A stretch of 64,000 nt of DNA. Origin: Candidatus Woesebacteria bacterium. GTDB taxonomy: Bacteria; Patescibacteriota; Microgenomatia; UBA8517. A program made the translations under genes and the position numbers. Positions within the stretch are counted from its first letter, which is position 1. Each line of letters begins with the position of its first letter. The notes under the pieces are model-generated. The model was given only the letters and a program-made list of their open reading frames with translations. It searched no databases and was not told the origin of the DNA. Below are positions 29,678 through 44,361 of this stretch, one piece after another. The stretch spans positions 272,715-336,714 of the forward strand of contig CP055308.1 in NCBI GenBank assembly GCA_013374855.1, written 5' to 3'.

Positions 29678-32600
29678 ATGTTAAATAATTCTGATTTAAC
29701 ATTTATCACAAATGAAAAAGGCCAAAATCTTCTTGAGAGATTTAAGGTGTTGATTAAAGATACCGAATTTTTTGATGTTTTGGTTGGTTATTTCTACACA
29801 AGTGGTTTTTACGCGTTGTATAAATCTTTAGAAAAGGCAAAAAGGATTAGGATCCTAATTGGTATTGGTACTGGCAAAAGAACTGTAGAATTGATAGATA
29901 AGGCTAAACAATCAGAATTGCAATTTTCTCACGCGGAGACAAAAGAACATTTTTCAAATTTGCTTGTTAATGAGATGGAGAATTCACAGGATAGCAAGTC
30001 GGTGGAGGAAGGAGTAATGAAATTTTTGGAATGGTTGCAAAACGGGAAATTAGAAATAAAAGCTTACCCAACAGAAAATATCCATGCTAAGTTATACATT
30101 ATGTCCTTTGCTGAAGGGGACCGCGATGTAGGGCGAATTATTACTGGTTCAAGCAATTTTACGCAAGCTGGTTTGGTGGATAATTTTGAATTTAATGTAG
30201 AATTAAAAAATCGTGCTGATTATGAATTTGCCAAAGCTAAATTTGAGGAACTCTGGAAACATGCTGTAGATGTAAAGGATAAATATATACAAACGATCAA
30301 AGAAAGAACTTGGTTAAATAATACTATTACTCCTTATGAACTTTATCTTAAATTTCTATATGAGTATTTTAAAGATGAACTTCTTCAAACAGATGAAGTC
30401 ATCTTCAAATACGTTCCGTCAGAATTTAAACGATTAGAATATCAAGAGCAAGCAGTATTAAACGCAAAAAAAATTCTTGAAGAATACGGTGGTGTTTTTA
30501 TTTCTGATGTTGTTGGGCTTGGTAAAACTTATATTTCTGCCATGCTTGCTAATCAACTTGATGGCAGAAGTTTAGTCATAGCGCCACCAGTGCTTTTAGA
30601 AAAAGATAATCCTGGTTCCTGGCCAAATGTATTTTCTGATTTTAGAGTACCGGCAGATTTTGAATCTCTTGGCAAATTGGATTATCTCATTCGGCGCGGC
30701 ACCGAAAAATATAGGAACATTTTCATTGACGAGGCACATCGTTTCAGAACGGAGTCAAACATAACTTTCGAAAAACTAGCTCAAATTTGTCGAGGTAAAA
30801 GAATCATTCTTGTCACAGCTACCCCTTATAACAATTCTCCAAAAGATATTCTAAGTCAAATCAAACTTTTTCAAAAAACTAAGAAAAGTACAATTCCTAA
30901 TTTACCAAATTTGGAGATCTTTTTTTCCAAACTTGAAAAACGCCTCAAAAATTTGGATAGATATAAAAACAGTGCTAAATACATTGAAATCTCTAAAGAA
31001 AATGCAAAAGAAATTAGGGAGAAGGTTCTTAAATATATTATGGTAAGAAGAACTAGGACAGAGATTGAAAAATACTTCAGTGATGATTTGAAAAAACAAA
31101 ACCTAAAGTTTCCTAGAGTAGAAGACCCGGAGCCGGTTTTTTATGAGTTAGATGACGAAGAAGATAAAATATTTAATCAAACGATTGAGCTCATTACCAA
31201 AAAATTTAAGTACGCTCGCTATATGCCTTTACTTTACTATAAGGGAAAACTTACTCAACCAGAAGAACTATCTCAAAGGAATATGGGAAGATTTATGAAA
31301 ATTCTTCTGGTTAAGCGGCTGGAGAGCAGTTTTTATGCCTTTAGAAAGAGCATTGAGCGATTTATTATTTATTACGAGAAGTTTTTTAAAGAATTTGAAG
31401 AAGGTAATGTCTATGTGAGTAAAAAATATACCTACAAAATCTTTGAACTACTTGAAAATGACGATGAAGAAAAGATTCAACGCTTAATAGAAGAAGATAA
31501 AGCTAGGAAATACTCGGCTAAAGATTTTAGAAAAGAACTTAAGTTAGATTTAAAACAGGATCTGGAAACTTTAAAAGATATCCAAAAACTTTGGCAAAAT
31601 ATTAAACGTGATCCAAAACTGCTCAAATTTATTGAAATGCTTTCTTCTCATCCAATTTTAAAGAAACAGAAATTAATTATTTTTACTGAATCGAAAGAAA
31701 CTTGCGATTATCTTTATAAAAATTTAGAGAAAAAACTTCCTGATCAAGTTTTATCCTATTCAGGTACTTCAAGCACTGTTATTAGAGAGAAAGTTATTGA
31801 AAATTTTGATGCTCGAGCTCACTTTCCTAAAGATGATTACCGGATATTGATAAGTACAGAGGTTCTATCGGAAGGTGTTAACCTTCATCGTTCCAATGTG
31901 GTGATTAACTATGATATTCCATGGAACCCAACTCGATTAATGCAAAGAGTAGGTCGCATTAACCGAGTTGATACTTCTTTTGATAAAATTTATGCTTTTA
32001 ATTTTTTTCCCACCAAACAATCTAACAGTTTAATAAAACTAAAAGAAGCCGCTGAGGCAAAAATTCATACCTTTATGACTTTACTTGGCGATGATGCTAG
32101 AATTCTTACTGAAGGGGAGCCTATTGGTTCACATGAATTATTTAATCGTTTGGTTTCCAAAAAAACGATCACAGGCGAAGATGAAAAAGAGGAAAGTGAA
32201 CTTAAATATTTACGAATTATTAAAAATATCCGTGACAATAATCCTGATCTATTTTCCAAAGTTAAGCAATTACCTAAGAAAGCAAGAACTGCTAGAAAAA
32301 ATAATCAGAAATCTAATTCACTTATCACCTATTTTCGAAAAGGCAAGCTTCAAAAATTCTTTATTGTCAGTAAAAGAGAACCTCAGGAAATAGATTTTAT
32401 TTCAACAGCCAAGTTACTAGAAGCACATTCAGATACGAAGCGCGAAAAACTTGGTCAAGATTTTTATGAATTGCTTGAAAAAAACAAAAAAGCATTTGAA
32501 TTGGTGACTATTGAAGACATCCCGGAATTAAAAATGAGAGGTGGTAGAGATGCGGCAACTCAGATGTTAAAAATATTAAAAGCGTTAAAAGATTTGCGAA

Positions 32601-32860
32601 AGTTTACTGAAGATCAAGAAATTTATTTAAGAAAAGTAATAAGAGAAGTTGAAGAAGGTGGTTTGCCTAAACAAACAACTAAAAATACTCTCAAAGAATT
32701 ACAAAAAGAATTAAAGAATGGTTTAAATCCTCTAAAAATTTTAGGAGTGCTTCAAAAAAATATCCCAAGCGATTTATTAAAAGAACATATTGTTGAAAGT
32801 GCCGCTCAAACTTCCGGACCAAGAGAGGTGATTTTATCAGAATATCTAGTTAGCGCATAG
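29678..32860 (+). CDS. PLD-family (HKD) nuclease domain fused to an SNF2/SWI2-family DEAH helicase
   Basis: N-terminal HKD motif NIHAKLYIM...GSSNFTQAGL. Helicase motif I is DVVGLGKTYISA, motif II is DEAHRFR, motif III is VTATPYNN, and C-terminal motifs IV-VI include NPTRLMQRVGRINR. Confidence 0.8.
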   Translation: MLNNSDLTFITNEKGQNLLERFKVLIKDTEFFDVLVGYFYTSGFYALYKSLEKAKRIRILIGIGTGKRTVELIDKAKQSELQFSHAETKEHFSNLLVNEMENSQDSKSVEEGVMKFLEWLQNGKLEIKAYPTENIHAKLYIMSFAEGDRDVGRIITGSSNFTQAGLVDNFEFNVELKNRADYEFAKAKFEELWKHAVDVKDKYIQTIKERTWLNNTITPYELYLKFLYEYFKDELLQTDEVIFKYVPSEFKRLEYQEQAVLNAKKILEEYGGVFISDVVGLGKTYISAMLANQLDGRSLVIAPPVLLEKDNPGSWPNVFSDFRVPADFESLGKLDYLIRRGTEKYRNIFIDEAHRFRTESNITFEKLAQICRGKRIILVTATPYNNSPKDILSQIKLFQKTKKSTIPNLPNLEIFFSKLEKRLKNLDRYKNSAKYIEISKENAKEIREKVLKYIMVRRTRTEIEKYFSDDLKKQNLKFPRVEDPEPVFYELDDEEDKIFNQTIELITKKFKYARYMPLLYYKGKLTQPEELSQRNMGRFMKILLVKRLESSFYAFRKSIERFIIYYEKFFKEFEEGNVYVSKKYTYKIFELLENDDEEKIQRLIEEDKARKYSAKDFRKELKLDLKQDLETLKDIQKLWQNIKRDPKLLKFIEMLSSHPILKKQKLIIFTESKETCDYLYKNLEKKLPDQVLSYSGTSSTVIREKVIENFDARAHFPKDDYRILISTEVLSEGVNLHRSNVVINYDIPWNPTRLMQRVGRINRVDTSFDKIYAFNFFPTKQSNSLIKLKEAAEAKIHTFMTLLGDDARILTEGEPIGSHELFNRLVSKKTITGEDEKEESELKYLRIIKNIRDNNPDLFSKVKQLPKKARTARKNNQKSNSLITYFRKGKLQKFFIVSKREPQEIDFISTAKLLEAHSDTKREKLGQDFYELLEKNKKAFELVTIEDIPELKMRGGRDAATQMLKILKALKDLRKFTEDQEIYLRKVIREVEEGGLPKQTTKNTLKELQKELKNGLNPLKILGVLQKNIPSDLLKEHIVESAAQTSGPREVILSEYLVSA

Positions 32861-32863
32861 ATT

Positions 32864-35800
32864 ATGGATGAAGATGCAGCAAAAAATTTAATACGAGAAG
32901 TTTTGGAGAGTTCTTTTAATAAAGAAAAATTTATTTATTTGATAAAAAATATTTTTAACCATATTGAAAATGCCCCTTTCGTTTATAAAGGTAATCTTAT
33001 TTTTGATGACTTTGCAGATTCAATTAAGACTTTAGAACGTATAGGAAAATATAAAGACCCTGAAGATAAACTTATAGATATTCTTATTGTTCATCTTAAA
33101 AAGGAAACTACCCTTGAGCGAGCTAGAACAAAACAAAGAAATTTTATTGCTAAATATCTTAAAGGCAGCCGAGGTGATATTTTGAAAGATGCGGCGTTGG
33201 TGGCTTTTGTATCTCCAAATAATGAAGACTGGCGTTTTTCTCTTGTTAAAATGGAGTATAAGTTTAATGATAAAGGAAAGGTTAAAGAAGAATTCACACC
33301 TGCCCGCCGATATTCTTTTCTCGTTGGTAAGAATGAAAACAGCCATACAGCTCAAAGTCGCCTCTTGCCGCTCCTTTTAAATGATAAAAATAATCCCACG
33401 CTGAAAGAATTAGAGGAGTCATTCAGCGTTGAGCGCGTAACCAAGGAATTTTTTGAAAAGTATCGTGACCTATTTTTGCGAATAAAGGAATCACTTGATG
33501 CTATAGTTAAAAAAGATGCTAAAGTCCGAGCCGATTTCAAGGAAAAAAACATTAATACAGTTGATTTTACCAAAAAACTTTTAGGCCAGATTGTCTTTTT
33601 ATATTTCTTACAGAAAAAAGGTTGGTTTGGAGTTGAAAAAGACAAAGATTGGGGAACTGGCGCAAAAAACTTTTTAAGGTCACTTTTTACAAAGAAAATT
33701 GTTGATTATAAAAATTTCTTTAATGATATTTTAGAACCTCTTTTTTACGAAGCTTTAAGATACGATCGTTCTTATGATAATCATTATTTCAGCTATTTTA
33801 AATGTAAAATTCCATTCCTGAATGGCGGTTTATTTGATCCTATTAATGATTATGATTGGTCAAAAACAGAAATACTCCTGCCAAATGAGCTTTTTTCAAA
33901 CAACCAAAAAACAAAAGAGGGTGACGCCGGCGATGGTATTTTAGATGTTTTTGACCGTTACAATTTTACAGTAAAAGAAGATGAGCCGCTGGAAAAAGAA
34001 GTTGCTATAGACCCGGAAATGCTTGGGAAAGTTTTTGAAAACCTATTGGAAGTAAAAGATAGAAAATCAAAAGGTACATACTACACCCCGCGTGAAATTG
34101 TCCACTATATGTGTCAGGAAAGTTTAATAAATTATCTTTATACCTCTGTGAATGAGGAATTAATGAAAAAAGCAGTTAGACCACAGAAACAGTTAAAACT
34201 TGTTGGCAACGAAGAACCCGAACAACTCAGTCTTCGTACAAAAGAAGAATTGATAAGCAAAGAGGATTTAGAAATATTTATAAAACACGGAGAATTAATA
34301 GCAGAAAATGAAAAAGTAACGATGGTCAGGAAGGAGCATATCAAAGAAGGTAAACTTAAAAGATCGAGTTATAAATTCAAACTTTCCGGGAGTATAAGAG
34401 AAAATGCAAAACTTATAGACGATAAACTAAGAGAAATTAAAGTTTGTGATCCAACCGTCGGCTCTGGTGCCTTTCTGGTGGGAATGATGAATGAGATTGT
34501 TAAAGCAAGACAGGTATTAGAAACTTATATTCAAGCAGGCAAAACCACCTATGATTTTAAGCGTGAATGTATCGAAAAATCTCTTTATGGTGTGGACATT
34601 GATCCAGGTGCGGTAGAAATCGCCAAGCTTCGTCTCTGGCTTTCACTCATTGTGGACGAAGAGAATATTGAAAACATTAAACCCTTGCCAAATTTGGACT
34701 TTAAAATTATGCAAGGTAATAGCTTGCTATCGGAGTTTATGGGAATTGATTTTGACAAAGAATCTGATAATAAAAATGGACAACTACTTATTTCCCACAA
34801 TGACACAAATGTATTGATTGAGGAATTAAAGAGAAAAAAGAAAGAGTATCTTAATAAAGCAAGTGCAGGAGGAAAAAAGGATCTAAAACAGGAGATAGAA
34901 GATTTGATAATTAAAATCTTTGAGGGAAAACTAAAAAGACAAAAGAATGATTACTTTAGCCAAATAAAAACTATTGAAGAAAAATATAAGGTTTTGCTTA
35001 ATATAGAACAGAGAGAAAGTATTATCAAGGAAGAAAAGGAGAAATTGTATAAGGCATCAGGTTTTAATTTAGAGCAATTTGAAAAACAGCTAAGAGAATA
35101 TACTACCGGCAATAAAATCCGCCCATTTTTCCCTTGGAAACTCTATTTTGCTGAAGTCTTTCATGAAAAAGGTGGATTTGATGTGGTAATTGCCAATCCA
35201 CCGTATGTGAGCGTAAAAGAAATAATCCCCCAAGATAAAAAAACTTTTGGTCAGTTGTTTGAGACAGGCAAGGGGCGATTTAATTTATTTACTTTATTTT
35301 TAGAAAAAGGACATAAACTTCTAAGGCCTGACGGGGTGCTAACTTATATTCTCCCAGAAAGTTTATACTTCAATTTTGAATATCGCTTTATTAGAGAATA
35401 TTTGCTAAATCATTCTTCAATTTTATTCGTCAATCTTTTTTCGAGCAGGGTATTTGAAGCCGCCGTTGATACATCCGTCATCAGCTTTGCTAATAAACAA
35501 AAAAGTAACAATTCGTTTCCAGTAATTAGAGACTTAAAAAATTCTAGTTTTAAGTTATCGCAGGAAGAACTTAACCAACTTCCCTTTAAGATTTTCCCTG
35601 TAAACTTAACTCAAAAGTCCAAGCCAATTATTGATAAGTTAATCAGTAATAACTTTGACACCCTCGAAAAAATTCTAGAAATTCAGCAAGGCATTATTTA
35701 TTCCGGCCTTCCCAAAGACAAAGTCTTTTCAAATACCCAAGTCAACAAAACCTACAAGAAGATCTTGGACGGACGGGATGTCTTAAAGTGGAGAATTAAT

Positions 35801-36319
35801 TGGGAAGAAAAACAAGAAAACAGATACATACATTATTCTGATAGGTTACACCGTCCTAGGGAGGAAAGAATTTTTTTAGCGAAAGAAAAGATACTACTTC
35901 CCAGAAAGGCTACCCGAATTTTGGCTGCTTATGATAATAAGCAATATTATGCGCTTAATACAGCTTATTTATGTCTTCCTAAAAGCAAGAAGTACAACCT
36001 TAAATATGTATTGGCTTGTTTGAATTCCAAGCTAATCAATTACTTTTATTCGTCACTCTTTTTTGGGTGGCAAATAACTATTCCAGCACTCAATCTTATG
36101 CCAATCCCCGTACAAAATACCTCGGGTCAAAAACCCTTCATTGATCTCGTTGACAAAATCCTCGCTGTTACCAAAGACGACGACTATTTAGAAAACCCCG
36201 CCAAGCAAGCCAAAGTCCGCGAGTACGAAAAACAAATCGACCAACTTGTTTATAAGCTTTATGGTTTGACAGAAGAAGAGATTAAAATTATTGAAAATGA
36301 AGAAAAAAAGAAGAAATAA
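32864..36319 (+). CDS. Large gamma-class N6-adenine DNA methyltransferase (Eco57I / PglX / Type IIG-like), 1151 aa with a C-terminal TRD-like region
   Basis: Motif X is GTYYTPREIVHYM. Motif I is CDPTVGSGAFLVGM. A K/E-rich coiled-coil insertion follows, then motif IV VVIANPPYVS. Motif I before motif IV gives the gamma order. There is a 3-nt gap after the helicase gene. Confidence 0.8.
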   Translation: MDEDAAKNLIREVLESSFNKEKFIYLIKNIFNHIENAPFVYKGNLIFDDFADSIKTLERIGKYKDPEDKLIDILIVHLKKETTLERARTKQRNFIAKYLKGSRGDILKDAALVAFVSPNNEDWRFSLVKMEYKFNDKGKVKEEFTPARRYSFLVGKNENSHTAQSRLLPLLLNDKNNPTLKELEESFSVERVTKEFFEKYRDLFLRIKESLDAIVKKDAKVRADFKEKNINTVDFTKKLLGQIVFLYFLQKKGWFGVEKDKDWGTGAKNFLRSLFTKKIVDYKNFFNDILEPLFYEALRYDRSYDNHYFSYFKCKIPFLNGGLFDPINDYDWSKTEILLPNELFSNNQKTKEGDAGDGILDVFDRYNFTVKEDEPLEKEVAIDPEMLGKVFENLLEVKDRKSKGTYYTPREIVHYMCQESLINYLYTSVNEELMKKAVRPQKQLKLVGNEEPEQLSLRTKEELISKEDLEIFIKHGELIAENEKVTMVRKEHIKEGKLKRSSYKFKLSGSIRENAKLIDDKLREIKVCDPTVGSGAFLVGMMNEIVKARQVLETYIQAGKTTYDFKRECIEKSLYGVDIDPGAVEIAKLRLWLSLIVDEENIENIKPLPNLDFKIMQGNSLLSEFMGIDFDKESDNKNGQLLISHNDTNVLIEELKRKKKEYLNKASAGGKKDLKQEIEDLIIKIFEGKLKRQKNDYFSQIKTIEEKYKVLLNIEQRESIIKEEKEKLYKASGFNLEQFEKQLREYTTGNKIRPFFPWKLYFAEVFHEKGGFDVVIANPPYVSVKEIIPQDKKTFGQLFETGKGRFNLFTLFLEKGHKLLRPDGVLTYILPESLYFNFEYRFIREYLLNHSSILFVNLFSSRVFEAAVDTSVISFANKQKSNNSFPVIRDLKNSSFKLSQEELNQLPFKIFPVNLTQKSKPIIDKLISNNFDTLEKILEIQQGIIYSGLPKDKVFSNTQVNKTYKKILDGRDVLKWRINWEEKQENRYIHYSDRLHRPREERIFLAKEKILLPRKATRILAAYDNKQYYALNTAYLCLPKSKKYNLKYVLACLNSKLINYFYSSLFFGWQITIPALNLMPIPVQNTSGQKPFIDLVDKILAVTKDDDYLENPAKQAKVREYEKQIDQLVYKLYGLTEEEIKIIENEEKKKK

Positions 36320-39300
36320 AAAACGGAAAGAGTTAAAACAATTAGGAAAACTTGTCTCTTATGGCGATTTTGTATTACCTCCAGTTATACCTGGCCCTAA
36401 AGTAAAAGACCTGTGTAAGAAGATTGATAATTTTTATAAAGGTTATCCAAGGCAACATCGAAAACAAAAAGCATCTGATTTAATCCATGGGGCATTCTAT
36501 GCAGTTAGGCCAGAATGTAAATCTAATGATGACTGGATGAGCCAATCAGCAAATTCGCTACGAGACGTTCTTTATCCATTTTTTAGTGAGGAAGTTAGTA
36601 AAAATAATTTACTAAAATTGTTCAGAAAATATGCAACAGATAAACAATATCGTAAAAAAACTCAGAATTTAAAATTTATTACGACATTTAATGCTCTTTA
36701 TAAAATTTATAAACAGTTGACTGATTTGGCTCATCATGGAACCAAACTAAGTGGATTTACGGAGGAAGAATATAATAATTTTTCAAGAAACGATTTTATG
36801 AATCTTATAAATAGTTTTGTTTCTATTTTAAGAGAAGTTCTTACTTTGCAGCAAATCTATATTCATACTGTCATAGATCTAATTGTGCAAAGAAAGAGAA
36901 AAACAAAAGCCCTTAAAGAAGATTTAGAATTGCTCTCAAAAGTAAATCCTGATGCTTGCCAATACTTTTTTATCAAAGTTGACGAGCAATGGTTAGGCTG
37001 GCTGTGGAAGAATGATTTTCTGGATGTTATAAAGCAAAAAGCAGAAGATCCGACTCGTTATAGTTATCTTACTCCAGAGCTTAATTATCTTGTTCGAATG
37101 GCAGAAAAAGTTCCTGCAAAAGTTGTTAATATTATGCTTGAGGTAGAAATATCAAAAGAAAATTTTAACCCCGAAGTTGTTGATAGATTTATACAAATTT
37201 GTAGTATTCTGCCGGCTGAGCAGCTTAAAAAGATTGTTCCTAAAATTCGTGACGAGAAATGGGTTTCTTTAATGAAAGGGTTTAATCAATGGGGTTTTGA
37301 ATATGAAAAGATGTTTCAAAAATTAGCAGAGGCGAAAGATTATGAGAGTATTATCGCTTTGGCAGAAGCAATCCTTTCGGTGAAAACAAAAGAAGAGATA
37401 GAAGGATATCAAATTGTTTTTGGTGACGAGCTATTTTACTTTGATGATTTGTTTTATACAAAAGTATTTGAATATTTAGTTGCCGTAAATGATAAATATG
37501 CTGAAAAAGCATTCGGATTAGCAATAAAAGTGATGGGTAAATTAATTGGGTTATTAAATAAAGATTCTGAAGAAGAAAGAGTATTTAAATTTTATGACAG
37601 ATATATACTTTCAGATGCAGACTTCTTTAATTTAGGGATTGAACAAAGAAGTCGTTTCTCAAGAGAAGGAAATATTGAAGGGCTTGTTATAGCAATTATT
37701 GAACTTGCTAAGAGATTGATTGTTGGAAAATGTGCGCAAGAAAGAGAAGAAGTTCGTCGAATTTTTAATCAATATATTGGCGACTTTGATGATATTAATG
37801 CGCCCTTACCAGATAGTCAGGCAATGTGGCGATTGCGTCTATTTTTTTTGAGCTTGTGTCCTCAGGTTTTCAAGGAAGAATTGAAAAAATCATTTTTCCG
37901 GTTATTTGAGGTTGAAAGCTATTATGAGATTATTCAAGGTGTGGAGTATTTAGAGGCATTGCGCTCTGGTTTTTATGTTTTATCTGATCATAATAAGCGC
38001 GGTTATGTAAACCGGGTTATAGAATATTTTGTAAAAAAAGAGAAAGAAGAAGAAAAAAGTGGACATTTAGATTTTGGTTCAAAGATTCTTTCTATGATTG
38101 CAAATCATTTGACAGAAGAAGAAAAGAAAAAAGCAGAAAAAATAGGATTTGTGATTAACCAAGATATTAAACCAGAGCCTGAAGTAAAGATAGGTGGGGT
38201 TGGACATATTTTTTCTCAACCACCGTTGTCTTATGAAAGTTTCCAAAAAATAGAAGTTCCTATAATTGCTGAAAAACTGCGTTCAGAATGGTCGCCCAAA
38301 GAGATCGCTGAAAAATATAAAGAAAGGTCAGACTTTTTCAATCGCATAAACGCAGAAGGCGTTGGAGAATACCTTCAAAAAAATATATCAGAGAGACTGC
38401 AGGATTATGTTGATAATGCTTTTAGGTTTTTTGATAGGGAAAATTTGGACTCTCATTACACTTATTCTTATCTTCGTGGGATTCAGGAAACAATTAAAGA
38501 TAATCGTGAACTTGCTGCAAAAGTAGATTGGAGTGGTATTATTAATCTCTTTAAATTAATTAAAGAGTCTGGAGAAAAAAATCAATTTGAGGAAAGAAAA
38601 AGAGAAAGAGAATTTTCTAATTTTTGGTTAGCTAGTTGGAAAACAGTGCATTCTGCAATGGCGGATGTTTTAAAAGAACTGCTTTCTTCAAAAAATGACA
38701 CAGAGGTAATTAATTTTGAAAAATACCGCAATGACATTGTTTCTATTCTCAAATATCTCTTTTTATATCCTGATCCTCGTCTTGAAGATGAAAAATTAGA
38801 AACTACTGACTTAAAAACAAAATCTTCAAATGATAAAGATTATATGGTTAGCGATCCTTTTAGTATTGCTATTAATTCGGTGAGAGGAAGAGTTTTTGAA
38901 GCCTTTTTATTATTTGTTTATCAAGACAGTAAGAGGTTTAAAGAAAAAGATAAGGTAAAGATAGCCGACGATGTAAAGTCTCTTTATGAAAATGTTTTAG
39001 AAAAAGAAAACACTCGTGCCATTATGTTTTTATTTGGTTATCATCTCCCCTCTTTTTATTATCGTGATAAACTATGGATAAAAAGACTTCTGAAGGTGAT
39101 TCTCCCCGGAGAAAAGTCAAAAAAGCATCTTTATACTGCAGCTTGGGAAGGTTATTTGTCTCAAAATCTTTATAAAGAAATTTTTTTTGATTCTGATTTT
39201 CAAAAACTATATGGGCGTGGAGTTGACTTAACTGACGACGATTTTCCACCTTATCAGAAACATTTTAAAGATCCTGAAAATGCTATTGGTATTCATCTTG

Positions 39301-39917
39301 CTCTTGCTTTTATATATTTTCCGGAATTTGGTTTTGAACATAATTTATTTAAAAAATTTTGGAAAACAAAAAGACCCAAAAGCCATAAAGAATTTATATC
39401 CTTTATTGGTAATAGTTGTCTGTCAAACGAGGTGGCTGGAGATGAATGGTTTGAAAAAAATAAAATAGATAAAGGAAAGCTTATTGAATTATGGAATTGG
39501 GCATTAAAGAATGTTTCAGATCCAAAAATTTTATCTGGTTTTGGCTCTTGGATTAATCCTAATAGAGAAATTTTAGATGATAATTTTGTAGTTGAAAAAA
39601 TAGCTTTAACAATACAAAAAACTGGCGGATACATCGATTGGGATTATGGTCTTTTTATGAGGTTGCCTTTTTTTGCAGAAAAGAATAAAGGAAAAACGTT
39701 AGAAATTATTTCGAATTATTTTCTTAATTCAAAAGGTAAACTTAATCAAAACTTTCGAAAGTTTCAATTATATGAGGAAGAGATAAAAAGGGCTATGATA
39801 ATTATTTATAAAAACGGAGATGAAAAAATAAGAGAAAAAGTAAAAATCTTAATAGACACACTTATAAGAGAGGGAAGTAATATATTTTGGGGGTTAAAGG
39901 AAGTTATAGGAGATTAA
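36291..39917 (+). CDS. 1208-aa hypothetical protein, predicted all-alpha and repeat-like, with no recognisable enzymatic motifs
   Basis: It is a long uninterrupted ORF in an AT-rich genome where long ORFs are unlikely by chance. Its start overlaps the methyltransferase 3' end by about 25 nt, which suggests translational coupling. The N-terminus is basic (KKKRRNKKRKE). No Walker A, HKD, PD-(D/E)xK, HNH or HEPN motif was seen by eye. Confidence 0.55.
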   Translation: MKMKKKRRNKKRKELKQLGKLVSYGDFVLPPVIPGPKVKDLCKKIDNFYKGYPRQHRKQKASDLIHGAFYAVRPECKSNDDWMSQSANSLRDVLYPFFSEEVSKNNLLKLFRKYATDKQYRKKTQNLKFITTFNALYKIYKQLTDLAHHGTKLSGFTEEEYNNFSRNDFMNLINSFVSILREVLTLQQIYIHTVIDLIVQRKRKTKALKEDLELLSKVNPDACQYFFIKVDEQWLGWLWKNDFLDVIKQKAEDPTRYSYLTPELNYLVRMAEKVPAKVVNIMLEVEISKENFNPEVVDRFIQICSILPAEQLKKIVPKIRDEKWVSLMKGFNQWGFEYEKMFQKLAEAKDYESIIALAEAILSVKTKEEIEGYQIVFGDELFYFDDLFYTKVFEYLVAVNDKYAEKAFGLAIKVMGKLIGLLNKDSEEERVFKFYDRYILSDADFFNLGIEQRSRFSREGNIEGLVIAIIELAKRLIVGKCAQEREEVRRIFNQYIGDFDDINAPLPDSQAMWRLRLFFLSLCPQVFKEELKKSFFRLFEVESYYEIIQGVEYLEALRSGFYVLSDHNKRGYVNRVIEYFVKKEKEEEKSGHLDFGSKILSMIANHLTEEEKKKAEKIGFVINQDIKPEPEVKIGGVGHIFSQPPLSYESFQKIEVPIIAEKLRSEWSPKEIAEKYKERSDFFNRINAEGVGEYLQKNISERLQDYVDNAFRFFDRENLDSHYTYSYLRGIQETIKDNRELAAKVDWSGIINLFKLIKESGEKNQFEERKREREFSNFWLASWKTVHSAMADVLKELLSSKNDTEVINFEKYRNDIVSILKYLFLYPDPRLEDEKLETTDLKTKSSNDKDYMVSDPFSIAINSVRGRVFEAFLLFVYQDSKRFKEKDKVKIADDVKSLYENVLEKENTRAIMFLFGYHLPSFYYRDKLWIKRLLKVILPGEKSKKHLYTAAWEGYLSQNLYKEIFFDSDFQKLYGRGVDLTDDDFPPYQKHFKDPENAIGIHLALAFIYFPEFGFEHNLFKKFWKTKRPKSHKEFISFIGNSCLSNEVAGDEWFEKNKIDKGKLIELWNWALKNVSDPKILSGFGSWINPNREILDDNFVVEKIALTIQKTGGYIDWDYGLFMRLPFFAEKNKGKTLEIISNYFLNSKGKLNQNFRKFQLYEEEIKRAMIIIYKNGDEKIREKVKILIDTLIREGSNIFWGLKEVIGD

Positions 39918-40056
39918 ACTGAAATTAAATCTTGCCAAACATTAAGCTGCAGATCTTAGCTTTTTCTTTGAGTAAACAAAGTTTTTTGTTGGGATTATTC
40001 AGTTTTTAGGCTCTTTTAAAAAGAAGGGTATGACAATATAATTTGATTAAATTTTA

Positions 40057-41325
40057 ATGGATATCTTTGATAAACTTGCCAAAAATATAAAATTTAGAGT
40101 CAAAAACACGATTTTGCGCCTGAAGGCGTACTTCAAGCGGCTTATCTTTCCTCTGTATCTTTTTCCAATTAAAATTATTACCTATTCTGCCTATTACCTT
40201 ATCAAGTTTGAAGCTAAATTTATTTTTGCTTTTTTGCGTCTTTTTTTTGAGATAATTGTTTTCCCCTTCAAAAGTTTGAAAAATTTTTTGAAGTCTGTTG
40301 CTGTTGTGGTTGTGTTTGTCTATATTGTTGCCTCTCTTTTTGTTATTATTGATTATCTTTCTAATTATTATGGTGATTTAAGAAAATATTTTTGTGTTAT
40401 TGAGAGAAGCAAGCTCCAAAATTCGGTTGTTAGAGTTGTCGGCGGACATTCTGAAGGTTCTGGGTTTTTTATAGCAGAGGATCAGGTCTTGACGAATTTC
40501 CATGTAATTTCCTACGAGGTAAGTCCAAAAGTTATTTTGCCAAGTGGAGAGTTTGTGTTACCAACCAAAATAGTTGGAGACAAAAATGCCGATTTGGCGG
40601 TTATTTTTACTGAGAAAAAATTTCCGGAGATGGTTTTTAAACTACCCGACAATGTTCAGATTATTCCTGAAGAAACACTCCTTTCAATTGGATATCCTTT
40701 GGGAACAGGTCTGAGTGGTAGAGCAACAATACTTAAGGGCAAGTTCATTGACTTCAGAAAACAGCGAAGTCTGCCGGTAAGGTATTTACAGACAGATATA
40801 AATTTAGTTAAGGGAATGAGTGGAGGACCTGTTACTGATTTGTGTGGACAGGTTGTAGGAATAAACACTCTTGGCTTGGCCGGTCTTTCTTTATTTATTG
40901 TAGCTTCTGATGCGAAATCTATTATTCCGAATATGACTGATCGAGATACTGCAAAGATAGAAGTTGACCCTTCTGTTTCTCCTGAGGAGGCTGTTAGAGC
41001 CTTCTATACCTATCTTAAGGCACGAAGAATGGAAGATGGTTTTAATCTTTTGAGCAAAGAATATCTAAATAAAACCAATTTTGAAGAATGGACAAGTAGA
41101 TTTAAAGATGTTTTAGATGTTGATGTGGTTAAAGTAGAAAAATACGAGGATTCGAAGGATACAGTATTTGTGAAGTTCACAACCAAGAATTGGATTGACG
41201 GAGAGGTGGAAATGCGTTTTTATGAAGGCACTTGGCAGACAGTAAAGGAGGATGGTGTTTACAAGATGAACAAAAGCAAGATTAAAGAGATTCCAAGCCC
41301 CGATTGGTTGTGGTTTTATTTTTGA
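40057..41325 (+). CDS. Membrane-anchored trypsin-like (S1/DegP-type) serine protease with an extra C-terminal domain
   Basis: Two N-terminal TM helices. Catalytic triad context is TNFHVI (His), DLAVIF (Asp) and GMSGGPV (Ser). The C-terminal 130 aa (YEDSKDTVFVKFTTKNWIDGE...) are unassigned. Confidence 0.7.
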   Translation: MDIFDKLAKNIKFRVKNTILRLKAYFKRLIFPLYLFPIKIITYSAYYLIKFEAKFIFAFLRLFFEIIVFPFKSLKNFLKSVAVVVVFVYIVASLFVIIDYLSNYYGDLRKYFCVIERSKLQNSVVRVVGGHSEGSGFFIAEDQVLTNFHVISYEVSPKVILPSGEFVLPTKIVGDKNADLAVIFTEKKFPEMVFKLPDNVQIIPEETLLSIGYPLGTGLSGRATILKGKFIDFRKQRSLPVRYLQTDINLVKGMSGGPVTDLCGQVVGINTLGLAGLSLFIVASDAKSIIPNMTDRDTAKIEVDPSVSPEEAVRAFYTYLKARRMEDGFNLLSKEYLNKTNFEEWTSRFKDVLDVDVVKVEKYEDSKDTVFVKFTTKNWIDGEVEMRFYEGTWQTVKEDGVYKMNKSKIKEIPSPDWLWFYF

Positions 41326-41359: not shown

Positions 41360-41815
41360 ATGAAAGTTGAAGAAGCTGTTGCTTTGATTTATGAGTGTGC
41401 AAAAGAGGTTTATGCAGAGCTTGGCACGGGTTGGAACGAGTCAATATATCAATCTGCAATGGAGGTTGCTCTTCGCCATAGAGGTTTAATGTATGAGACA
41501 CAAAGAATTTTGCCAATTACTTTTAAGGGTCATGTAATTGGGGAGTCAATTCCAGATCTTGTTGTGTGGGTGGAGGAAAAGGGGGTAAAGACTGCAATTG
41601 TTATTGATTTAAAGGCAGATACTGGAATAAAAGAGGATCATGATGTTCAGGTAAAAAGATATATTCAAGAGCTCAAGAAACAGGTTCATAAAGACGAAAG
41701 TGTTTATTCGAAGGGGTACTTAATCAATTTTGTTAAAGAGTCAACCTCTAAAAGACTTGCGGAAGGAACGTATGAAGATTTTAACGGAGTGCAGATTTTG
41801 GAAGTTTTTTCTTAA
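41360..41815 (+). CDS. GxxExxY-family protein (PD-(D/E)xK-like fold family)
   Basis: GWNESIYQSAMEVAL matches the family-defining GxxExxY-Q-x-A motif. It is followed by IPDLVV ... DLK, which resembles a nuclease-fold core. Confidence 0.55.
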   Translation: MKVEEAVALIYECAKEVYAELGTGWNESIYQSAMEVALRHRGLMYETQRILPITFKGHVIGESIPDLVVWVEEKGVKTAIVIDLKADTGIKEDHDVQVKRYIQELKKQVHKDESVYSKGYLINFVKESTSKRLAEGTYEDFNGVQILEVFS

Positions 41816-44276: not shown

Positions 44277-44289
44277 ACAATTTTTCTTG

Positions 44290-44361
44290 AGGCACGAGAG
44301 GGAATCGAACCCTCGCATAGCTGTTTTGCAGACAGCCGTGTTTCCACTTCACCATCGTGCC
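44290..44361 (-). tRNA. tRNA-Cys (anticodon GCA), 72 nt, with CCA not encoded
   Basis: The minus-strand read gives acceptor GGCACGA/TCGTGCC, a 3-bp D stem (GTG/CAC), anticodon stem GCTGT/ACAGC with loop CTGCAAA (GCA), T arm GAGGG-TTCGATT-CCCTC, and discriminator U. Confidence 0.8.

Follow-up and report, generated by a model that had tools for sequence, protein, structure and literature searches.

An undescribed HEAT-solenoid protein family with exchangeable head modules beside restriction-modification genes in Patescibacteria and other bacteria

The window analysed here is a 64,000-nucleotide (nt) stretch of the genome of a Candidatus Woesebacteria bacterium (GenBank assembly GCA_013374855.1, contig CP055308.1, positions 272,715 to 336,714 of the forward strand). 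It contains an operon in which the genes for a PLD-SNF2 helicase-nuclease and an N6-adenine DNA methyltransferase are followed by a very long gene (Table 1); this gene, its predicted HEAT/ARM-like alpha-solenoid product and the protein family to which it belongs are the subject of this paper. The open reading frame (ORF) extends from 36291 to 39917 on the plus strand (positions are those of the window) and its translation has no internal stop. At the window's G+C content of 34%, the chance of an open frame of 1208 codons is ~3.5e-40. A mechanical ORF call begins at TTG 36291, with an in-frame ATG two codons on at 36297. The ATG (product MKKKRR..., 1206 amino acids, aa) is the likely start, in agreement with an identical database protein of 1206 aa, P0001, which is encoded on an 802-kb contig. 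A first-pass annotation of this DNA had judged the ORF unlikely, at its length, to be spurious and had noted a start that overlaps the 3' end of the co-oriented methyltransferase gene. That observation is confirmed: the chance value, the identical entry and the homologues described below establish the gene, and the two genes share 23 nt counted from the ATG, or 29 nt if TTG 36291 is used. The basic N-terminus that it reported is present in that the first 17 residues are rich in Lys and Arg, although residues 1-18 are modelled with a predicted local distance difference test (pLDDT) score <50 and are unconserved. The block with the lowest G+C content in the window (38001-40000; 0.302, with flanks of 0.33-0.38) lies over the 3' half of the gene.

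Table 1. Features of the solenoid gene and of its neighbours in the window.
Feature	Position	Strand	Remarks
PLD(HKD) nuclease-SNF2 helicase	29678..32860	+	1060 aa; first operon gene; Pfam PLDc_2, SNF2-rel_dom, Helicase_C; PADLOC 'HKD+Snf2' 4.5e-43
Eco57I/TaqI_C-type N6-adenine DNA methyltransferase, Type IIG-like	32864..36319	+	1151 aa; Eco57I 2.8e-31, TaqI_C 2.3e-22
HEAT-solenoid family gene, whole	36297..39917	+	1206 aa; full-length alignment with 61 homologues
Overlap of methyltransferase 3' end with solenoid gene start	36297..36319	+	23 nt; possible translational coupling
Lys/Arg-rich N-terminal tail MKKKRRNKKRKELKQLG	36297..36347	+	Not conserved in alignment; disordered in model
Helical head domain, pP_pnuc_1-like, putative effector	36348..36821	+	Ends at ~residue 175
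Conserved core, HEAT/ARM-like alpha-solenoid, putative sensor or scaffold	36822..39914	+	~1030 aa
Trypsin_2 (trypsin-like) protease	40057..41325	+	Hydrophobic N-terminal stretches; Pfam Trypsin_2 8.8e-19; 139-nt gap after solenoid gene
GxxExxY / PDDEXK_3 (PD-(D/E)XK) protein	41360..41815		151 aa; end of island

The solenoid protein as a whole matches no catalogued family. Profile searches of the full-length sequence against Pfam, PADLOC, NCBIfam and PHROGs gave no match (zero families in PADLOC-DB v2 at E<=0.01), the family profile searched against all PDB sequences returned nothing but a spurious DnaJ match (E 1.4), and a Pfam scan of 42 divergent full-length members revealed no recurrent family in the core. 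An AlphaFold2 model built with the family alignment (mean pLDDT 87.4; predicted template modelling score, pTM, 0.70) is nearly all helix with almost no beta strands. Its stacked antiparallel helix pairs and its similarity to known HEAT/ARM proteins place the predicted structure among the HEAT/ARM alpha-solenoids. Such solenoids were the only matches in a Foldseek search against the PDB, in which enzyme folds were absent: CAND1, importin-13, RanBP5, MMS19, SF3B1 and CRM1 were matched with E values of 6e-6 to 5e-4 and low TM-scores, as expected because superhelices of this kind are flexible. Eukaryotic HEAT adaptors (the PP2A A subunit, importin-beta/karyopherins and CAND1) are among the closest known systems. 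The protein contains no conserved P-loop or Walker A motif and lacks the central STAND NTPase domain, placed between effector and repeat sensor, by which STAND/Avs proteins are recognised; the octapeptide AEKNKGKT (39675-39698, residues 1127-1134), which fits a loosely defined Walker A pattern, is a chance match that is unconserved in the consensus and modelled as helical. The model, the Foldseek result and the motif check thus agree with the first-pass view of an all-alpha protein with HEAT/TPR-like repeats and no P-loop. That annotation had also judged this component the most likely to be new and had suggested profile and structure searches for a known housekeeping family; none was matched other than HEAT/ARM solenoids by fold. 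The source names of the homologues, all 'hypothetical', and the failure of Pfam, NCBIfam, PADLOC, PHROGs and PDB sequences to yield a match support its novelty.

The family is real and widespread, and neither Pfam nor NCBIfam nor PADLOC has a model for its core. Word-indexed searching detected 291 homologues that are 40-60% identical along their full length; each is either unnamed or labelled 'hypothetical', and Pfam domains are annotated in none of them. A look-up among clusters yielded neither a name nor an accession for the window protein. An exhaustive profile search of 1.84 billion cluster representatives returned 2624 relatives at E<=1e-3 and 553 at E<=1e-30. When one genome per species was scanned, relatives occurred in 106 of 185,579 species, all represented by metagenome-assembled genomes (MAGs) or single-cell genomes. 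Most are Patescibacteria, with others in Caldilineaceae, Nitrospirales, Omnitrophota, Fibrobacterota, Aminicenantia and one 'Methanosarcinales' bin. The ORF is thus conserved in related genomes, as the first-pass annotation had required for its reading to hold. Viral contigs with a relative number only 3 in 2.9 million. Across an alignment of 62 members, column identity averages 51%, and many aromatic and some polar residues are invariant. For a bacterial HEAT solenoid of ~1000 residues, conservation at ~50% identity between phyla is itself unusual, and the family is prominent in Patescibacteria, a group with poorly known immune repertoires. No description of this HEAT-solenoid family was found in the literature. 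Some taxonomic labels should be read with care. Loci L075 and L076 have identical shared-region ORF maps and tblastn coordinates, although their MAGs, from one sample series, are assigned to different phyla (Candidatus Azambacteria and Flavobacteriaceae, respectively), an artefact that probably arose through binning or duplication. The one 'Methanosarcinales' label and several of the 'Gammaproteobacteria' labels may be unreliable in a similar way.

The organization of the family is modular. ORFs were called and clustered in 80 loci that hold a family member (loci are given as L numbers). Homologues occur in two lengths, ~1200 aa and ~1000 aa, with the short forms beginning at profile position ~166. 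The fused long form is present in 19 of the 80 loci. In 41 others the head is encoded by a separate upstream gene that abuts the short form (26 of the window type and 15 of two divergent types), with head-to-core gaps mostly of -4 to +30 nt; profile-profile comparison with hhalign links the three head types at 97-98% probability. In 8 loci the gene that abuts the short-form core encodes an unrelated protein of ~220 aa whose N-terminus forms a single hydrophobic helix (one-transmembrane, one-TM), and in 3 a CHAT-domain (caspase-like) protease (Pfam CHAT 1.8e-10) takes the place of the head; hhalign found both modules unrelated to the head types. Locus L086 holds a one-TM-type module gene similar to those of the 8 loci. 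The head domain also occurs twice in tandem before the solenoid in homologues P0241 (residues 1-360) and P0370 (residues 1-330), and it has an FRG domain (PF08867) fused to its front in the Caldilineaceae locus L022 (L022:8725-9843). These arrangements show that the head is a detachable, exchangeable module, which may be fused, split, duplicated, or replaced by a TM protein or CHAT protease. The swapping of nuclease-like, protease and membrane modules on a constant large body is a pattern known from immune sensor-effector proteins. Head genes of similar size (~365-375 aa) occur in L024, L030, L052 and L064, and an FRG+TPR protein is encoded directly 3' of the solenoid gene in L001 (L001:13283-14488). 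In L074 the match to the solenoid protein is fragmented over 4.4 kb (L074:10001-14456), with three reverse-strand genes between the core and a CHAT module gene, an arrangement that suggests either an insertion or a broken copy.

The first-pass annotation had called the protein motif-less, with no nuclease signature. A conserved P-loop and a HEPN motif are indeed absent and the window protein itself matches none of the profile collections, but the first ~175 residues form a distinct domain with invariant polar residues that is weakly related to a Pfam family of predicted nucleases. Six residues (N77, D79, Q83, R89, H146 and H147) never vary among fused-form heads. When all head types are compared, R89 shows no variation, and conservation reaches at least 90% at S87, E90 and H146. 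The window protein holds N77, D79, Q83, S87, R89, H146 and H147, with Asp at position 90, where Glu is usual. When 56 heads were scanned singly, 19 matched PF18165 (pP_pnuc_1, "predicted pPIWI-associating nuclease") at E<=0.1 (best 1e-5), and any other Pfam family matched at most 3 of them. Both tandem-head homologues match PF18165 on a conserved G-A..R...N-P-D-W..Q.A.S-L-R-E motif, P0370 with an E value of 5.1e-6 and 26.6 bits, compared to a gathering cut-off of 26.3. The first conserved motif in the head, ...G-A-x-x-A-x-R...N-P-D-W-x-x-Q-x-A-x-S-L-R-E-I-L, aligns to profile positions 10-40, within an alignment that covers ~positions 10-44 of 133, or about a quarter of the profile. A model of the stand-alone head has a pLDDT of 84.6; R89 and H146/H147 are ~57 residues apart, with R89 predicted to lie inside one helix and H146/H147 just past another. 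A HEPN identity was considered for the head: no Rx4-6H motif was found in residues 1-200, and the fold matches, which are generic helical bundles, speak neither for nor against the up-down four-helix bundle of HEPN domains. We conclude that the head is pP_pnuc_1-like, though divergent, and that its conserved residues look catalytic; a nuclease function would follow from the Pfam prediction.

Genes that surround the family vary in type and are rich in defence functions. Upstream sequence extends for 4 kb or more at 59 loci. A co-oriented methyltransferase lies within three genes at 25 of them (16 Eco57I-type, 8 ParB-N6/N4 and 1 Dcm), and 39 have some methyltransferase in the locus. Where a methyltransferase lies directly 5' of the solenoid gene, the distance between the two is -29 to +12 nt in 12 of 14 cases, so that the overlap in the window is typical. 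The order helicase-methyltransferase-solenoid recurs in L001, L008, L018, L041, L047, L060, L069, L073, L075, L078, L086 and L087. Other partners are a Type IIG-like methyltransferase alone, a ParB-N6/N4 methyltransferase with a ResIII helicase (which usually accompanies methyltransferases of this kind), Dcm with Vsr or HaeII, a Type ISP-like enzyme and other defence-island genes. Scans of individual upstream genes identified the Type ISP-like enzyme in L048, a HaeII endonuclease beside a Dcm methylase in L058 and a Schlafen-type helicase in L055; Vsr endonucleases occur in L003, L019 and L025, with a Dcm methylase in two of these. An aggregate scan of 83 upstream ORFs added HpaII and DpnII endonucleases, an EcoRI methylase, PIN, SMODS, IrrE/HTH, SocA and integrases. 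Large serine recombinases account for 18 ORFs across the loci and lie on both sides of the cassette in L088. Downstream genes at times look PD-(D/E)XK, NYN-like or Mrr-like when their sequences are read by eye. These loci show that the family resides in defence islands and on mobile elements. They also show that the solenoid unit mostly runs in the same direction as genes for methyltransferases or restriction enzymes, which are of several unrelated kinds, and that it adjoins or overlaps them.

We tentatively interpret the window protein, with confidence somewhat short of even, as a member of an undescribed two-part family that accompanies restriction-modification (R-M) modules as an add-on immune sensor with an effector head. 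The solenoid, as sensor or scaffold, would bind a conserved macromolecule, which could be a phage or host protein or a nucleic acid, or would respond to the state of the neighbouring restriction enzyme. Binding of this cue would control the head, a putative toxic or restricting effector and probably a nuclease, and the whole unit would form a second line of defence alongside the R-M module. In the window, the protein, the PLD-SNF2 helicase-nuclease and the Eco57I-type methyltransferase would be expressed together. Viewed in this way, the family varies the known effector-plus-repeat-sensor immune architecture: it has no NTPase, its HEAT body is the size of a karyopherin, its head is pP_pnuc_1-like and its coupling to R-M modules is promiscuous. 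Several observations weigh against this interpretation. The window's own head does not match PF18165 at E<=0.1, the nuclease activity of PF18165 is itself only predicted, and no paper or description of pP_pnuc_1/PF18165 was found in the literature. About half of the loci have no methyltransferase directly upstream. No PADLOC model matches the protein, which therefore cannot be tied to any defence system validated by experiment. The core is also more conserved than the head (majority-residue frequency 0.63-0.65 vs 0.56), which is unusual for a sensor of fast-evolving phage proteins, and it may bind a conserved host component or DNA. Its most conserved polar residues are mostly basic (K316, R700, R811, R863 and K894, plus H1000); taken with the conservation of the core, this hints at a conserved host, phage or nucleic-acid ligand rather than a fast-evolving phage protein. 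A bolder form of the proposal, which is possible but doubtful, is that these proteins are an unrecognised class of NTPase-free immune receptor, in which the HEAT solenoid responds to some conserved sign of infection or restriction failure and switches on an exchangeable head (pP_pnuc_1-like nuclease, CHAT protease or membrane protein) as a portable second layer behind unrelated R-M systems, particularly in the tiny-genome Patescibacteria (candidate phyla radiation, CPR).

The first-pass annotation had instead suggested that the protein could be a sensor or scaffold subunit specific to this system. As a dedicated structural, sensor or specificity subunit it would hold together or target the PLD-SNF2/methyltransferase complex. 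HEAT solenoids are typical scaffolds, and the 23-nt overlap with the methyltransferase stop and the recurrence of the three-gene order in 12 loci accord with such a role. A sensor or scaffold function fits the fold; specificity to this system is contradicted. The helicase is present in only 13 of the 80 loci, the solenoid gene lies equally tight behind unrelated methyltransferase and restriction types, and its product is 40-60% identical whatever the partner type. The helicase family, with >7900 homologues at E<=1e-50 and 72-85% identity across many phyla, far exceeds the few hundred to ~2600 relatives of the solenoid protein. Moreover, 4 of the 5 close helicase relatives examined on long contigs have the helicase and methyltransferase pair without a solenoid gene (L082-L085); the position after the pair holds nothing recognisable in L082 and L083, an AAA_13 ATPase in L084 and a UvrD helicase in L085. 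The closest helicase relative (84% identity, L086) is accompanied by a TM-module gene and a short-form solenoid gene. The pair is therefore a self-standing two-gene restriction-like module with a variable third position, for which the solenoid gene is one option, and a subunit dedicated to it is distinctly unlikely. A looser alternative is a non-catalytic, nucleic-acid-binding or regulatory scaffold that tunes R-M generally, for example by binding DNA or its ends along the solenoid and so shifting the balance of methylation and cleavage, with the head as a binding or docking module instead of a nuclease. The conserved basic core residues, the high conservation of the core, the many associated methyltransferase types and the generic fold matches of the head would suit this role. 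The exchange of the head for a CHAT protease or a membrane-anchored protein follows the pattern of effector swapping and not that of DNA-binding modules, however, and the invariant N/D/Q/R/HH set looks catalytic, so that we consider a general regulator unlikely, if less so than a dedicated subunit.

Genes of this kind could also be cargo that serves a mobile element through an anti-restriction, establishment or addiction function and travels with orphan methyltransferases. Fusions of ParB with N6/N4 methyltransferases are typical of phage and plasmid orphan methylases, and they are common neighbours here; large serine recombinases occur often and border the cassette on both sides in L088, and three matches lie on contigs classed as viral. 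Those three are, however, the only matches in 2.9 million viral contigs. Nuclease-containing, complete restriction systems (PLD-SNF2, ResIII, HaeII and Type ISP) make up many of the neighbours, which are thus not orphan methylases, and the window island lies between housekeeping genes (GroEL, M23 peptidase and Mur ligase) with no recombinase. The probability of a service to the element is correspondingly small. Those same flanking genes are what would favour a housekeeping protein that adjoins the operon by accident, which is scarcely credible given its patchy distribution over distant phyla, its varied but defence-rich neighbourhoods, the recurrence of overlapping or abutting co-oriented genes and the lack of a match to any curated family. 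If the immune-sensor interpretation is correct, these proteins constitute an uncatalogued defence gene family of simple modular design, in which a giant repeat sensor carries plug-in effector heads, and they offer a biochemical handle on the pP_pnuc_1 domain. Genetic coupling to at least five kinds of R-M system would make the idea of a backup layer directly testable.

Comparison with known systems places the family apart from each of them. DISARM is defined by its core genes, DrmA (a helicase) and DrmB (DUF1998). The window helicase matches DrmD models only below the cut-off (131.8 vs 610 bits), and no ORF of the island has DrmA or DrmB as its best match. As to PF18165, no PIWI or Argonaute genes were noted in the neighbourhoods examined, and the passages found from the pPIWI paper contain no description of that domain. 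PrrC, a latent anticodon nuclease within the EcoprrI Type I R-M locus, provides a second line of defence once the restriction enzyme comes under attack; it combines an ABC-type NTPase domain with a HEPN nuclease and has no HEAT solenoid. No sequence or fold relationship to PrrC was found, and it serves as a conceptual analogue only. The best functional analogue of an effector head joined to a solenoid sensor is DSR2 (defence-associated sirtuin 2) of Bacillus subtilis, in which a SIR2 head is followed by an alpha-solenoid that senses the phage tail tube protein (PMC11850899, PMC11263360). Likewise, the window protein is a large single protein without an NTPase, in which a putative N-terminal effector domain precedes a long HEAT-like alpha-solenoid. 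Unlike DSR2, it has no SIR2 match in Pfam or PADLOC, no sequence relationship between the two was found, and DSR2 is absent among the fold matches listed.

Among described operons, the nearest in type are those of BREX-related (BR, Hma) systems, which are centred on DUF499. Type-2 members comprise an HKD+Swi2/Snf2 helicase, an N6-methyltransferase, a DUF499 AAA+ ATPase and DUF3780 (PMC12839542). In Type-1 systems the DUF499 ATPase often has an N-terminal HEPN RNase, which has been read as a backup effector (Rakesh & Krishnan 2026, PMC12839542). The window operon resembles Type-2 in that it combines an HKD-Snf2 helicase, an N6-adenine methyltransferase and a third large protein, and the nuclease-like head on that protein is a parallel to Type-1. 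DUF499 and DUF3780 have no match in the eight neighbouring proteins scanned (26.1-44.3 kb), and a degenerate DUF499/BrxC ATPase was ruled out for the third protein, which is modelled as all-helical and has no P-loop. The operon is not a BR/Hma member because it lacks DUF499 and DUF3780 and because the solenoid protein is not an ATPase; the latter is also found with partners outside BR systems.

Other genes of the island add local detail. The helicase and methyltransferase genes are 3 nt apart, and the methyltransferase aligns along the entire length of PADLOC model PDLC03596 (REase_MTase_IIG; 2.6e-268), with no significant Pfam domain in its N-terminal ~500 aa (32864-34400). The gap between the solenoid and protease genes contains a promoter-like site (40015-40042); the promoter and terminator scan of the operon is uninformative because sites are no more numerous than in shuffled sequence. 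The trypsin-like protease was considered as a component of the system and is probably not a core part, being found near a solenoid gene in only 3 other loci. A protease with 59% identity lies two genes 3' of the solenoid gene in the Woesebacteria locus L041, and the protease may travel with the cassette in some lineages. No equivalent of the GxxExxY/PDDEXK_3 protein was seen in the other loci. With no recombinase nearby, nothing points to integration at the sole transfer RNA (tRNA) gene of the window, a tRNA-Cys (GCA) gene at 44289-44361 on the minus strand, which lies ~2.5 kb past the island and just after the Mur ligase gene.

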